The notes beneath the pieces were generated by a model. The model did not search any database. It had not been told where the DNA came from and saw only the letters and a program-made list of their open reading frames with translations. Source: Candidatus Saccharimonadota bacterium (GTDB lineage Bacteria > Patescibacteriota > Saccharimonadia > Saccharimonadales > Saccharimonadaceae). From it: DNA of 32,000 bases. Below, in pieces: positions 15,358-22,459 of the stretch. Both the position numbers and the translations under genes were made by a program. Every line of letters starts with the position of its first letter. Within the stretch, counting starts at the first letter, position 1. The stretch spans positions 60,001 through 92,000 of the forward strand of contig CP006915.1 in NCBI GenBank assembly GCA_000503915.1, written 5' to 3'.

Positions 15358-15609
15358 ATGACAACAGAAGATATCATACATGAAGCAGGTCAAAAATTAG
15401 TAACGATCACTTTCGACTACACCGAAGCCGACGGGAGCAATGAAGGTACTCGTGAGGTAGAACCATATAGCTACAGGGACAAAAACGGTCGGAAGTTTAT
15501 GGGATACGATCTTCGAAAAAGCGGAATTCGCGCTTTTGTACCAGAAAATATTCACAACATTGCGCTTACGAATAATTCATACACGCCTCGCTGGCCAGTT
15601 GAAGTTTAA
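15358..15609 (+). CDS. Minimal WYL-like domain protein (83 aa)
   Basis: REVEPYSYRDKNGRKFMGYDLRKSGIRAFVPENIHNIALT matches the WYL-domain pattern (R-x-V-x-P ... Y/W-x-x-G-Y ... R-x-F ... I). AAGGAG Shine-Dalgarno sequence upstream. Confidence 0.45.
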   Translation: MTTEDIIHEAGQKLVTITFDYTEADGSNEGTREVEPYSYRDKNGRKFMGYDLRKSGIRAFVPENIHNIALTNNSYTPRWPVEV

Positions 15610-17480
15610 TGAAGCTTGGAAAAAGCATCTTTAAAGGCCTGAGGTATCTGTGATGCGTCGGTTATATGTTTCTTTAGATCGGCCGCCAGAGCCTCTCCCT
15701 TAGAGTTCAGATAGTTGCTTCGCCCTGTGTCCGCAGCAATGTAAGCTGCTATCTGTTTACATAATTTGGTGTCTTTTTTGCTTGCGTCTATCTTGCTGCG
15801 CATATCATTAAGTTGATCGGTTGTGATATCCACCCCGCACTCATTTTTAATAGCGGCGATCCATACATCGTTGGCTATTGAATCTTCAAAATCCGCAACC
15901 TCACCGACTAAATAAATGTTGTCTCCAGTTGCTCCGGTATCTTTATCTAGTAAATATACTATTGCATCGTCCGGCTTGCGATAGTCACCAATAATATCTT
16001 TAAGTACCCTCTTGTAGTGTTCTCGGTTGGACTCGCCGCCAAGGCTAACCGTACGTACGCCGACGTCCGACAAAGTCGTACTATGAATAAGTTGGTGAAA
16101 GTGATCGAGTAGATGATATTCCGTTGCGCCCTCGACGGCAAGAAATTTGTCATAGAATAAGAAATCACTGTTTCTCACGCCTAAAGTATTGAGGGCATCC
16201 TCTGTGTCTTCGGTTGAAAGAATCTGTGTATAGCCGCCCTTGAGCTCGGTTTTGTATACGTCCTTAAGCTTAGTCTTATCAACAAACGTTATCGAGTGCG
16301 TACTCAGGACAATCTGGAATTTATTGCCACTTAATTCTCGCAATGTTTCTGCGAGCTCACGCTGCGCCTGCGGATATAGATGAGTCTCCGGCTCGTCGAA
16401 CACCCATATGTATTTAGTGTTGTCGCTATCGTCATCTACACTTTCCTCGGCAATGGCACGTATAAGCCCTAGCCCTATCTGCCGTTTTATGCCGTCACCT
16501 TGATCGGCAATATGTATCTGCTTATCGCTCGTGTCTTTACTGACAAATACCTCGGTGGTATTTTTCGCTAGCGGTATATTAATATTTGCACTAAGACCAG
16601 TAATTGACTTAGGCAGATGATCAGAATATTTCTCGAACAGCTCAGACAATTTATCATTGGCAACCTTATTTACATCATCCTGCTTCTTATTCACTTCTGC
16701 CTGGATATCCTTAATCGACTGATCTATGGATGGGCCGATAGCAGTCGTGATAAGACTCTGTAACTGGTCGATACTTATATCCCAATCCAGATATTGAAAT
16801 GAGGGGAAAAAGCCACGGTCTTTTTTAAAATCGTACCGAGACCACATGGGCTCGACTGTCATAGATTCATATATAACGTTTATGCGTTCAATATTCTTTA
16901 AGCCACCGCGTCTATTTTGGTTAGGGATACTACTGTCATCGATACCAAGCGTAGACTGTAGTGCCTTCAGATCATTCTGTTTTTGATTCCACAACTGTCG
17001 TGGCTCCCCGTCGTCTCCGTGCGAGTCATTGCAAAATACAAAATATTCACCGATTGGATTCAGCTTTTTTAATATATAAACACTATCATTAACACTTTTC
17101 CCGTTTAATACATGCTGTAGATGTTCAGATGGGCCTTGCGTGTCGATCTCCTCGACTGTCAAAACATGCTCAATCTTGAATTCGCCTAATAGGTATACTG
17201 ATTGACTGTCATACTCTGGTGCAATAAGACCTAGGTCTGTAAATACTTTTTCAAACAGTGACTGCTCGAGCGGCGTATTGGACACTGAACTAATCCTGCT
17301 AGTCTCTGTGGTTTGCGGTAGACTCTTGCTCTCCGAGAAGAAAAGATCGATCGATTTGAGCAGGGTACTTTTACCAGCATCATTCAAGCCAATGAGTGTC
17401 ACATACGAATCCTCGGCGAGAGGAATAAGAACATTCTTGAGACTCTTATGATTCATGATCGTGATATTTGCAAGTCTCAT
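15606..17480 (-). CDS. OLD-family nuclease (N-terminal ABC-type ATPase, C-terminal TOPRIM)
   Basis: Walker A GLNDAGKST, signature-like QGDGIKRQ, Walker B IWVFDEPETHLYP, H-loop VLSTHS. TOPRIM residues are in FLAVEGATE and VYLLDKD. Confidence 0.8.
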   Translation of the reverse strand: MRLANITIMNHKSLKNVLIPLAEDSYVTLIGLNDAGKSTLLKSIDLFFSESKSLPQTTETSRISSVSNTPLEQSLFEKVFTDLGLIAPEYDSQSVYLLGEFKIEHVLTVEEIDTQGPSEHLQHVLNGKSVNDSVYILKKLNPIGEYFVFCNDSHGDDGEPRQLWNQKQNDLKALQSTLGIDDSSIPNQNRRGGLKNIERINVIYESMTVEPMWSRYDFKKDRGFFPSFQYLDWDISIDQLQSLITTAIGPSIDQSIKDIQAEVNKKQDDVNKVANDKLSELFEKYSDHLPKSITGLSANINIPLAKNTTEVFVSKDTSDKQIHIADQGDGIKRQIGLGLIRAIAEESVDDDSDNTKYIWVFDEPETHLYPQAQRELAETLRELSGNKFQIVLSTHSITFVDKTKLKDVYKTELKGGYTQILSTEDTEDALNTLGVRNSDFLFYDKFLAVEGATEYHLLDHFHQLIHSTTLSDVGVRTVSLGGESNREHYKRVLKDIIGDYRKPDDAIVYLLDKDTGATGDNIYLVGEVADFEDSIANDVWIAAIKNECGVDITTDQLNDMRSKIDASKKDTKLCKQIAAYIAADTGRSNYLNSKGEALAADLKKHITDASQIPQAFKDAFSKLH

Positions 17481-21400: not shown

Positions 21401-22459
21401 GCGGTATGGTGTCCCGGAAAGGTGTAGTTTAATCTTGGCGTTGATCGGCTGCAACCCTTGTATCCTGCCCAACTCATCGATGCCGTCGGTATCTTTAAGA
21501 GACTCTTCATCTTCTTCGCTTAGTTCAACGCCAGCTAAGATTTTACCTAGAACTTGAGCTCGTGCGCCAAAGTGCGTTTCATCGATGACAAGCAGGTCTG
21601 GGCTAACGGTCTTAAGTATTTCGTGGCGCTTCTTAACCTCTACCGCCGACCCAGCTAGATCTTGCAGCGTCAGGAAGAGAACGACGTTAGTGCAAGTCTC
21701 TTGCTTGCCGTCGCCTGTGTAGAACTCGGCTCCGTATACATCGCTAAATTTCAGGTCTGTTGCTAGGTCTGAAATTTCCATGAAGCGATAGCCAGCAAAG
21801 TCTTTGTGGCTTTCAACGGTCTGCTTCCATTCCGATCTAACATCGGCTTTTGCAGATACGACTAGCGTCAATTTCGAATCTATTTCTTTAGCACACCACA
21901 TAGAGGTAATTGACTTACCAAAGCGCATCACGGCATACATGAGAAGATTCGTGCGGCCGTTCGATACGGCGTTCGAGAAGTTATTAATTACTTCTTGCTG
22001 ATTGTCTCGTGGCGCAAAGTCTTTTTCGCGCGCATAGTGAAGCTCAACTCTATCCCTCAAGCTATCGTAGTAAGCGTACTTACCCGGAGTACCGTAACTA
22101 TCTATAACATCCTGAACAGCAACAGTGACATCTTCGCCATTGATACTATCGAAGAACTCATTTGAGTAAATGCCGTTTTCTCTGTCTATCTCTACGCGAG
22201 CCGTGCCGTTAGTCTCAAGATATTTATGCACGGAGTGGTCACGAAAAAACACATTGTCATTAACCAATGCCTTGTGCCGCGAAACCTCAACCAGATCCTT
22301 ATAGTGCCTACGCCATTCATTGAGGCGTTCTTCAACCGAACGGTACGAGTCTCCCACCTTCAGTAGATTTGGCAGTGTATTTGTTTGAAACGAGTAAATA
22401 TGAGGCTCGACTCGACCGGTAATTATTTCTTTGATTTTAGAGTCGTCAAAATTAGCCAT
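18434..22459 (-). CDS. Type ISP-like fusion: T5orf172/GIY-YIG-like domain, SF2 helicase, gamma-class N6-adenine DNA methyltransferase with TRD-like tail
   Basis: N-terminal HIYSF...LLKVGDSYRSVEERLNEW. Walker A GKS at 21911-21919 and DETH at 21572-21583. Acidic linker at 20171-20287. Methyltransferase motifs SEVFTP, VLDVASKSGSF and NPPY (19391-19402). The C-terminus ends LYIKYGLDESEINFIE. Confidence 0.85.
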   Translation of the reverse strand: MANFDDSKIKEIITGRVEPHIYSFQTNTLPNLLKVGDSYRSVEERLNEWRRHYKDLVEVSRHKALVNDNVFFRDHSVHKYLETNGTARVEIDRENGIYSNEFFDSINGEDVTVAVQDVIDSYGTPGKYAYYDSLRDRVELHYAREKDFAPRDNQQEVINNFSNAVSNGRTNLLMYAVMRFGKSITSMWCAKEIDSKLTLVVSAKADVRSEWKQTVESHKDFAGYRFMEISDLATDLKFSDVYGAEFYTGDGKQETCTNVVLFLTLQDLAGSAVEVKKRHEILKTVSPDLLVIDETHFGARAQVLGKILAGVELSEEDEESLKDTDGIDELGRIQGLQPINAKIKLHLSGTPYRILMGSEFAKEDIIAFVQFSDIYEAKLDWSANNLDKNEWNNPYYGFPQMVRFAFNPNESSRKKLEAIPGSKPSEIFAPVDTNKGGNYETFAHEQEAVDLLQVLDGSKEDSQLLGLLDHPSVKSGKLTRHVVIVLPKRASCDAFEKLIRERADLFKNLSQHKVLNISGHNASLTKPEQIKTAIAEAEENGEKTLTLTVNKMLTGTTVPQWDTMIYLKATVSPQEYDQAIFRLQSPWIKQYTSETGEVIKYDMKPQTLLVDLDPTRLFFLQEAKALSYGANTGNIGNENIEQFVARELRVSPVLAFNAENNKLVEVEASVIIDAVRKYASERSISEDVNEIGVDISLRDNEDIYGLISTLAEINGKNGLNISPIDDEGDGQELDADDDEDRQGSEETDGSSSGGTDGSSTDDEASAIKTFEKQFRMYYVLILLFAFLSTTEEKSLTDVVANLNANEDNRRIARSLGLKKEHLNALRQTINWSVLSSLDYKIQNSDYRANDDTVTPVEHINTAINKFGKLSDSEVFTPAHIVDKVYDSFDDAFWQNISSAKVLDVASKSGSFANGFVARAMQSGAALDEVRNHFYSIPTSPAAYEFTRKMYEALGLNIDNIAQHFTSYDTLELKHPDAITKLLENKTLSEITKQDLKGIDDKIESNESEVSQVKFSAIVGNPPYDQQSSGAATDKKPIYHLFFESAKAMNPSYVSLIHPARFLFNAGKTPKDWNKKMLNDKHFSVPFYEPSSKKVFKEVDIKGGVAITLWNRDNPSGGLGGSFVSYEELRTTLAKVGKGGLNGIISTAGGSPTIRYEDKFGRKRSYFRTSAFFDLPDVFSDKKDATHQIEIVGLERGNKRSRRFVSASMLNDKAIEKWKVFVPESNGTGAIGEIMSTPLVGEPLVGCTESFIRIGAFDTEPEARNCMKYVKTKFCRAMLGTLKITQHNPRSTWCNVPVQDFTSESDIDWSQSLANIDKQLYIKYGLDESEINFIETRVRAME

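Follow-up and report, generated by a model that had tools for sequence, protein, structure and literature searches.

Genes for a predicted two-gene restriction system and for an OLD nuclease: probably separate defence modules on a Saccharibacteria mobile element

Three adjoining minus-strand genes were analysed in a stretch of 32,000 nucleotides (nt) from a Candidatus Saccharimonadota bacterium (GenBank CP006915.1, positions 60,001 to 92,000). This whole stretch is called the window, and positions are counted from its first letter. Gene 1 (18434-22459) is an open reading frame (ORF) of 1341 amino acids (aa) with helicase and methyltransferase domains, gene 2 (17483-18430, an ORF of 315 aa) encodes a methyltransferase-like protein and gene 3 (15606-17480, an ORF of 624 aa) encodes a protein of the OLD family. 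In a first-pass annotation the trio was proposed to be a single undescribed defence system. Were this so, an OLD nuclease would be coupled to a restriction motor in a new way; on the evidence, it is not so. The genes are probably separate defence modules that lie side by side on a mobile element integrated at a tRNA-Glu gene. Genes 1 and 2 appear to be a variant of the motor-driven restriction enzymes with an unusual conserved partner, and the OLD gene beside them belongs to a separately inherited block.

Genomic context of the gene 1/gene 2 pair

One genome per species was scanned with a gene 2 profile. At least 568 matches were confirmed and the best 80 loci were examined. These were distributed over Patescibacteria, Bacteroidota, Clostridia, Bacilli, Proteobacteria, Treponema and Bifidobacterium. 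A gene 1-like gene adjoined gene 2 on the same strand at 73 of the 80 loci (68 of these genes covered at least 300 aa), and most of the seven remaining loci had a flank too short to tell. The order was gene 1 followed by gene 2 in Patescibacteria and Bacteroidota; it was reversed in Firmicutes, where the two genes were still adjacent. In viral and mobile contigs, gene 2 was present at 10/10 loci with full-length gene 1 relatives, and more distant, helicase-only relatives of gene 1 occurred without it. The two-gene family comprises over 2000 clusters at 50% identity. The literature searches made turned up no experimental work on it.

No OLD gene was found at any of the 92 other loci of the pair (80 genome loci, the two closest relatives and 10 viral loci). 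A tblastn search of the 80 genome loci with gene 3 gave no match. A hidden Markov model (HMM) of the OLD clade was run on 82 loci (the 80 loci and the two closest relatives) and detected no full OLD protein; apart from a single weak match to a generic ABC ATPase it returned nothing. In the two nearest relatives of gene 1 (75% and 71% identity) the 3-nt junction with gene 2 is retained, and the genes that follow are a protease/AAA pair or belong to type IV secretion.

The closest gene 1/gene 2 pairs (L081 and L082) were located on Saccharibacteria elements with TrbL, PrgI, VirB4-like and TraG genes, one of which also carries a Shedu SduA_C gene. These have the appearance of conjugative elements, in a lineage of episymbionts whose genome is very small. 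At other loci (L003, L018, L021, L026, L034, L038, L040 and L044), 1-3 kb of unrelated genes were inserted between the gene 1-like and gene 2-like genes. This cargo, judged from sequence without a domain-library scan, comprised NYN, S24, Fic, T5orf172, AlbA_2-type, YhcG-type and RhuM-like genes. Cargo between partner genes corresponds to the 'embedding' pattern described for other methylation-based systems (10.1101/2024.01.29.577857).

Inheritance of the OLD gene

Gene 3 was assigned to the OLD family using Pfam (AAA_15 at 9.5e-38, AAA_21, and OLD-like_TOPRIM at 7e-7), with an ABC ATPase at about residues 1-425 and a TOPRIM domain at about residues 441-560. The defining features of the family were all found: an N-terminal ABC ATPase with Walker A and B motifs and, at the C-terminus, a TOPRIM domain with its Glu and DxD residues. 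The Walker A, DEPE, VEGATE and LDKD motifs are intact, and GxxxxGKS, DEPE, E450 and D512/D514 were invariant in the alignment of the OLD clade. The best PADLOC model was Old (1.7e-43), and the only sequence match in PDB was the Class 1 enzyme TsOLD (6P74). With both domains and all catalytic motifs present, the initial description of gene 3 as a complete OLD protein was upheld.

Relatives of this OLD protein at 54-99% identity were found on Saccharibacteria mobile elements carrying serine recombinase, TraG-like, DUF2130, S24 peptidase and Mrr genes. Five types of cassette lie directly upstream of these close relatives. They are a Type I HsdM-S-R cassette (L083, OLD 81% identical), a Type I variant made of HsdR and a fused HsdM/S (L089, 54%), a Type II methylase with a DpnII-type enzyme and no helicase (L084 and L085, 72%), a split cassette of an Eco57I methylase and a ResIII helicase (L088, 67%), and a gene 1/gene 2-type pair (L086 and L087, 67%; L197-L201, 99%).

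The comparison of the window with L197 was the most informative. The OLD proteins are 99% identical, and the gene 1 products share only 25% aa identity. Gene 2 is 66% identical overall and nearly identical in its last ~70 residues. The nt identity, calculated in 200-nt steps, was 94-99% between positions 12965-17650 of the window and positions 8800-13500 of L197. This recently shared block contains the last ~60 codons of gene 2, the OLD gene, an 83-aa WYL-like gene, an HNH gene, an S24 peptidase gene and a DUF2130 gene. Identity was 52-67% over most of gene 2, 96-99% from ~17650, and 64-80% in the TraG-like gene below ~12965. One breakpoint thus falls inside the 3' end of gene 2 and the other at the DUF2130/TraG boundary. 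From this identity profile, OLD shares its recent history with the DUF2130 block and not with gene 1. The first of the two breakpoints marks an exchange point inside the conserved 3' end of gene 2.

These data were used to weigh the idea of one obligate system, in which the TOPRIM domain of OLD would supply cleavage for the helicase-methyltransferase. The 2-3 nt spacings, the shared orientation, the Shine-Dalgarno-like sequences inside the preceding genes and the recurrence of the trio in L086/L087 and in L197-L201 all fit such a system. It is nevertheless very improbable: the pair does without OLD at 92/92 other loci, a 99% identical OLD is combined with a 25% identical gene 1, and OLD relatives follow unrelated restriction types, among them a Type II cassette that has no helicase. 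Cleavage by the TOPRIM domain in trans, which had been suggested in the first-pass annotation, is contradicted because the pair is widespread without OLD and because gene 1 retains its own conserved nuclease-like N-terminal domain. The single-system claim is not supported: the pair occurs at many loci without OLD, and close OLD relatives follow five cassette types. PADLOC models already provide named, though generic, labels for gene 1 (Type IIG restriction-modification) and gene 3 (Old), and an assignment by existing tools was one of the outcomes that the first-pass annotation itself had listed as refuting its claim.

A different link between OLD and restriction was also considered. OLD could be a guard or back-up of the cassette upstream, co-expressed with it and, by the logic of PARIS or PrrC, released as a non-specific nuclease once restriction is disabled by a phage anti-restriction protein or a DNA mimic. 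This is compatible with separate modules. In 7/7 distinct contexts (OLD at least 54% identical), OLD is directly preceded by a co-oriented restriction cassette, with gaps of -1 to 66 nt and all five types represented. More distant OLD members are embedded in Type I loci (L100 and L107), directly follow a Type I locus (L094 and L113), or adjoin a Type III system (L098) or a Type ISP gene (L099); among the other distant members, L122 adjoins a UvrD helicase and L096 adjoins GmrSD. The same idea has been published for BREX, Hma and Type I systems (10.1101/2024.01.29.577857; PMC12839542). However, a single mobile-element backbone is common to the close relatives, so the pattern may reflect no more than a cargo slot beside one of its genes. 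The relatives L090 and L091 (44-46% identity) lack neighbouring restriction genes, the counts are raw context counts without a control frequency, and the trigger is hypothetical. A back-up role, the second reading offered in the first-pass annotation, would apply to neighbouring restriction systems in general; it was considered possible, but was not the expected outcome.

The partners of OLD could instead lie on its other side. An 83-aa WYL-like ORF (15358-15609, plus strand; Pfam WYL at 8e-5, PADLOC WYL at 6e-7) converges on the OLD gene, with a 4-nt overlap at the OLD stop codon, and is found at this place in L086, L087 and L197-L201 as well. A DUF2130 protein (12993-14177, minus strand; Pfam 4e-86) is encoded further along and recurs near this OLD clade. 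We take DUF2130 to belong to the PD-(D/E)XK superfamily. OLD, the WYL-like or KTSC protein and DUF2130, in some elements with an HNH protein and a LexA-like S24 peptidase, may thus make up an undescribed module. The 95-99% identical block common to L197 consists of exactly these genes. DUF2130 is within 2.5 kb of OLD in most relatives examined, and it is directly adjacent, outside the shared backbone, in L091 (9874-11181), L107 (11912-13183) and L099 (3371-3850). Genes for KTSC proteins abut OLD at 14/82 loci, including some with OLDs only ~22% identical to gene 3. Neither family is among the PADLOC v2 models. Against such a module, DUF2130 was found at only 12/82 and KTSC at only 14/82 OLD loci (lower bounds, because many contigs are short), gene order and orientation are not constant, several relatives lack the S24 and HNH genes, and Class 1 OLD proteins can act alone (PMC10568477). 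DUF2130 could be an undescribed OLD partner, judging from its recurrence; for the module as a whole the likelihood was put on the low side.

The small proteins that abut OLD genes were a 70-aa KTSC-domain protein and the 83-aa WYL-like protein, the latter at 4 loci and in the window. Loci with such small genes include L092 (7786-7998), L113, L117, L134, L137, L142, L150 and L156.

Domains of gene 1

Motif coordinates in gene 1 were worked out by hand from the translation. The protein has, in order, a T5orf172-like domain, an SF2 helicase, an acidic linker, a gamma-class N6-adenine methyltransferase, a variable recognition region and a conserved C-terminus. The domain order and the motifs were those listed in the first-pass annotation, and every sequence feature that it had listed for the locus was present at its position. 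The best-matching PADLOC model was REase_MTase_IIG (PDLC03626, REBASE-derived; residues 10-1111, E 1.1e-294). More than 4500 homologues were found, and a protein annotated in Candidatus Saccharibacteria bacterium RAAC3_TM7_1 is 100% identical to gene 1. A sequence search against PDB and a search of NCBIfam gave no match.

The putative nuclease domain, of T5orf172/GIY-YIG-like type, corresponds to residues 1-145 (22025-22459). Pfam made no T5orf172 call on the N-terminus of gene 1 itself. The assignment was obtained from precomputed PF10544 matches in 10 homologues at 55-72% identity, from the alignment of the gene 1 N-terminal profile to a stand-alone T5orf172 protein encoded in the window (hhalign E 4.5e-4), and from the pattern hIYxY...KIG.T...R...EWF, which was seen in every family member inspected, distant ones included. 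Residues Y22, K34, G36, R40, R45, E48, H78 and E101 were invariant in the family alignment. The T5orf172/GIY-YIG-like module recognised at the outset was thereby substantiated.

The SF2 helicase/translocase core (residues 148-640, 20540-22018) was identified by Pfam ResIII (148-352, 1.5e-8) and a weak Helicase_C match. It contains GKS (residues 181-183, 21911-21919) and DETH (residues 293-296, 21572-21583), and its motifs were invariant in the family alignment. The acidic linker (residues 725-763, 20171-20287) is one of the two least conserved stretches of this alignment, with a column identity of 0.39-0.43.

A complete gamma-class N6-adenine methyltransferase domain (residues 860-1110, 19130-19882), with the motifs EVFTP, LDVASKSGSF and NPPY (the last at residues 1020-1023, 19391-19402), was delimited using the Pfam Eco57I methylase match (933-1095, 3e-19) and an AlphaFold model. 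The model of the methyltransferase part had a predicted local distance difference test score (pLDDT) of 87. Its Foldseek matches were CamA, BrxX/PglX, DrdV, LlaGI, BpuSI and MmeI (E 3e-11 to 1e-6). Residues 1116-1215 (18815-19114) are variable (column identity 0.38-0.50) and probably form the target-recognition region; within them, residues 1140-1215 (18815-19040) are the least conserved of the methyltransferase region. This stretch occurs as a few discrete sequence types, common to proteins that are not each other's closest relatives. Such a distribution suggests domain swapping, as would be expected of a swapped recognition region.

A 23-nt near-repeat (21/23 identical) was noticed between gene 2 (17778-17800) and gene 1 (18975-18997), both copies encoding YEDKFGRK. 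It was rejected as a sign of gene conversion and is probably due to chance, because gene 1 homologues differ at that spot.

Gene 2, a half-methyltransferase with a zinc ribbon

Gene 2 carries the motifs EVFTP, LEISCGEAPF, YGYEWQGDN, ARENLL and WNIFQMDG, followed by a C...CxxC...H zinc ribbon, and ends before motif IV (NPPY). It has no match in Pfam or NCBIfam and matches the PADLOC model MTase_II ('Type II methyltransferase') at 1e-95. It is ~70% identical across relatives from several phyla and is far more conserved than gene 1. An exhaustive profile search returned 2051 clusters. Many of these are proteins of 650-710 aa in which the gene 2 sequence is extended by FDFVIGNPPYQ, an Eco57I domain and a gene 1-like C-terminus. 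Since these longer relatives continue into the catalytic half, gene 2 is best read as the N-terminal, cofactor-binding half of an Eco57I-type methylase that has no catalytic half. The early description of the middle protein as methyltransferase-like was therefore sound.

An alignment of gene 2 to motifs X-I of gene 1 was obtained with hhalign (E 2.7e-5). In a natural fusion, P0460, a region like gene 2 is continuous with a T5orf172-helicase protein of the gene 1 type, which supports a physical association of gene 2 with gene 1. The AlphaFold model of gene 2 had a pLDDT of 70. A Foldseek search of this model against PDB gave nothing significant (best E 0.68), and a sequence search against PDB gave no match. 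Because Foldseek could not assign the fold, the half-methyltransferase assignment draws on the sequence and on the longer relatives. Two other descriptions of gene 2 were discarded: a paralogous copy of the C-terminal region of gene 1 (hhalign E 0.17) and an ordinary second methylase, as it ends before motif IV.

Operon layout and upstream region

The ORF coordinates agree with the gaps of 3 nt and 2 nt reported initially between the three genes. Gaps of 2-3 nt are usual in the source genome (e.g. 14177/14180), so tight spacing is weak evidence of a functional unit. Genes 2 and 3 both have Shine-Dalgarno-like sequences shortly before their start codons, inside the stop regions of the preceding genes, and these make co-translation plausible. 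Co-transcription of genes 1-3 is probable on this arrangement, in line with the single transcription unit originally proposed.

The -10 box and the terminator first described both exist as sequence. A TATAAT hexamer (22470-22475, minus strand), a putative promoter element, lies 10 nt upstream of the gene 1 start codon. An imperfect hairpin with a T-run (~22526-22577, minus strand), a possible terminator, lies 3' of the upstream T5orf172 gene. A consensus promoter/terminator scan supported neither: nothing was returned at 22470-22475 or 22526-22577, and fewer sites were found than in shuffled sequence. The scan is silent on the hexamer because there is no -35 match, and on the hairpin because its loop is longer than 8 nt.

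The stand-alone T5orf172 protein (22600-23211, minus strand) is encoded directly upstream of gene 1 and is a separate defence candidate (Pfam T5orf172 at 3e-18; PADLOC PDC-S57, a single-gene candidate, at 8e-69). A megablast search of the region against Escherichia coli genomes and plasmids gave no match. Further upstream, two pairs of direct repeats were observed (23307-23325/24410-24428 and 23682-23709/24818-24845), the copies of each being ~1.1 kb apart. Both pairs are near the starts and ends of two small genes (23744-24397 and 24844-25788), and may be shared regulatory sites.

Mobile element

The trio is carried by an integrated mobile element of ~19.8 kb (7788-27575). The element was delimited by a 21-nt direct repeat (20/21 identical) at 7788-7808 and 27555-27575, the right copy being the 3' end of a tRNA-Glu gene (27557-27631). 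Its cargo includes two serine recombinases and a TraG/TrwB-like protein. The guanine plus cytosine fraction is ~0.43-0.49 inside the element versus 0.50-0.57 over most of the flanking sequence. A gene for an Mrr_cat restriction-endonuclease-like protein (8061-8624) is located just inside the left end. Just outside this end is a glycosyltransferase gene (6428-7417) that also matches Pfam 'GT4-conflict'.

Proposed function

The favoured explanation has two modules. Module A would consist of genes 1 and 2 and be an ATP-dependent, two-gene restriction-modification system from a large family. This proposal builds on the domain layout, the intact motifs, the conservation of the pair and the natural fusions. 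The methyltransferase and variable region of gene 1 would recognise a short site and methylate an adenine on host DNA. Unmethylated sites would switch on the SF2 motor of gene 1, with ATP-driven movement along DNA, and the N-terminal T5orf172/GIY-YIG-like domain would cut the DNA. The most likely role of gene 2 is that of an accessory or regulatory subunit bound to gene 1; gene 2 is not expected to be a methylase, because motif IV and everything after it are missing. Module B would be the OLD nuclease, as part of a block of OLD, a small WYL-like or KTSC protein, HNH, S24 peptidase and DUF2130. This block would adjoin the slot in which restriction cassettes are exchanged. OLD is probably transcribed with whatever cassette lies upstream, and would act as an independent, possibly second-line, ATP-dependent nuclease.

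Several observations weigh against this explanation. The loci sampled were the best 80 matches of each scan, and were neither random nor exhaustive. At least three variants of the trio with 2 nt between gene 2 and OLD occur (the window, L086/L087 and L197-L201). A co-oriented restriction cassette immediately precedes OLD in all its close relatives, so that a functional tie between OLD and restriction in general should not be dismissed. Restriction by the pair, nuclease activity of the T5orf172-like domain and any role of gene 2 are predictions from sequence. Finally, a split cluster with the same three activities, DnmA-YeeB-YeeC, methylates DNA in Bacillus subtilis but showed no restriction or phage defence (PMC9973331).

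By analogy with the proposal made for that B. subtilis cluster, genes 1 and 2 could be a methylation-only or decayed system that does not restrict. The putative status of the T5orf172 nuclease activity would accommodate this. On the other hand, all motifs are intact and the N-terminal domain is strongly conserved across phyla. The family is large and mobile, and allele swapping in the recognition region is typical of active restriction systems. Vibrio homologues of DnmA/YeeB are reported to affect phage sensitivity, in work cited in PMC9973331. Loss or absence of restriction was accordingly regarded as unlikely, and a predicted ATP-dependent restriction-modification pair is retained as the description of genes 1 and 2.

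A more speculative extension, given little credence here, is that the OLD clade, DUF2130 and the small KTSC/WYL-like neighbours form a portable second-line module. This module would dock immediately downstream of any restriction cassette, be expressed from it and fire when restriction is blocked, and the unusually conserved gene 2 sequence would serve as a homology anchor for the exchange of entire helicase-methyltransferase cassettes ahead of the module.

With separate modules as the working description, the locus has a twofold significance. The two-gene family would represent a motor-driven restriction enzyme that apparently uses a T5orf172 domain as its nuclease, together with a half-methyltransferase/zinc-ribbon partner. 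The locus is also a clear natural example of restriction cassettes exchanged before a fixed OLD/DUF2130 block on a Saccharibacteria mobile element. Such exchange bears on the assembly of layered defences in bacteria with very small genomes.

Comparison with known systems

Gene 1 resembles the Type ISP enzymes in having a nuclease-like domain, an SF2 helicase-like motor, a gamma N6-adenine methyltransferase and a recognition region in one polypeptide, with the SF2 ATPase preceding the methyltransferase. LlaGI was among the structural matches of its methyltransferase part (E 2.7e-8); CamA and BrxX were closer. The Type ISP likeness pointed out in the first-pass annotation stands for the order of activities and for the T5orf172-like module in place of Mrr, and fails in two respects. 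No Mrr (PD-(D/E)XK) nuclease was matched by Pfam at the N-terminus, which is T5orf172/GIY-YIG-like, and the C-terminal PF18135 (Type_ISP_C) was not detected in gene 1 at E<=0.01, a model that detects the L099 member at 4e-96. In addition, Type ISP enzymes are single polypeptides in the descriptions cited (PMC3553950; PMC4666363), whereas gene 1 has gene 2 as a partner at about nine in ten loci and is fused with it in P0460; on single-chain sufficiency, membership of Type ISP is doubtful.

A likeness to Type IIG/IIL enzymes is seen in the match to PDLC03626, in the Eco57I domain and in the structural matches to DrdV, BpuSI and MmeI. To our knowledge, the characterised enzymes of these types (Eco57I, MmeI, DrdV and BpuSI) have no helicase motor. 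In the Eco57I system, too, a second methylase is encoded by a gene of its own. Gene 2 differs in having no catalytic half and cannot be an ordinary second methylase.

The DnmA-YeeB-YeeC system of B. subtilis and Vibrio crassostreae consists of an MmeI-like adenine methyltransferase, an SF2 helicase and a T5orf172 protein, encoded in a conserved cluster in defence islands (PMC9973331). It was compared by domain set only: three separate proteins correspond to the one fused gene 1, and no gene 2-like partner is described. No described T5orf172-helicase-methyltransferase system was found in the literature, where most candidates were judged from search listings alone. MANTIS (10.64898/2026.09.23.753747) has a different composition. 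Hma was set aside: REase_MTase_IIG and MTase_II were the only models that gene 1 hit at E<=0.01, and the best 25 of the 114 matches of gene 3 included no Hma model.

For gene 3, Gabija (Class 2 OLD) was rejected: no UvrD-family gene adjoins gene 3, the helicase of gene 1 is SF2, and PADLOC scored 147 bits for Old and 85 bits for GajA. Retron-associated (Class 3) OLD was also rejected, as no reverse transcriptase was found by Pfam among the neighbouring genes (Rfam was not searched). PARIS has separate AriA (ATPase) and AriB (TOPRIM) proteins where gene 3 is one chain of 624 aa, and the AriA match covers the ATPase part only. The closest known proteins are the Class 1 OLDs (P2 Old and Thermus scotoductus OLD), as seen in the PDB match to TsOLD and the PADLOC Old model. 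Like them, gene 3 combines ABC ATPase and TOPRIM in one full-length fusion and has no adjoining UvrD or reverse transcriptase gene. By definition, Class 1 genes occur singly and apart from other defence genes (PMC10568477), whereas the clade of gene 3 occupies defence islands, where its members directly follow restriction cassettes and have DUF2130 and KTSC genes close by.

In this respect gene 3 resembles HEC-01, HEC-04 and the OLD-ABC modules of BREX, in which an OLD-type gene is co-oriented and lies beside or inside a methylation-based system. ABC ATPase-TOPRIM genes in or next to such systems are documented, and one such fusion, HEC-04, defends alone (10.1101/2024.01.29.577857; PMC12839542). 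A second-line or anti-anti-restriction role has been proposed for them in the same studies. An OLD gene next to a methylation-based defence is thus an already published pattern, from which gene 3 differs in lying downstream of its cassette and not embedded in it.

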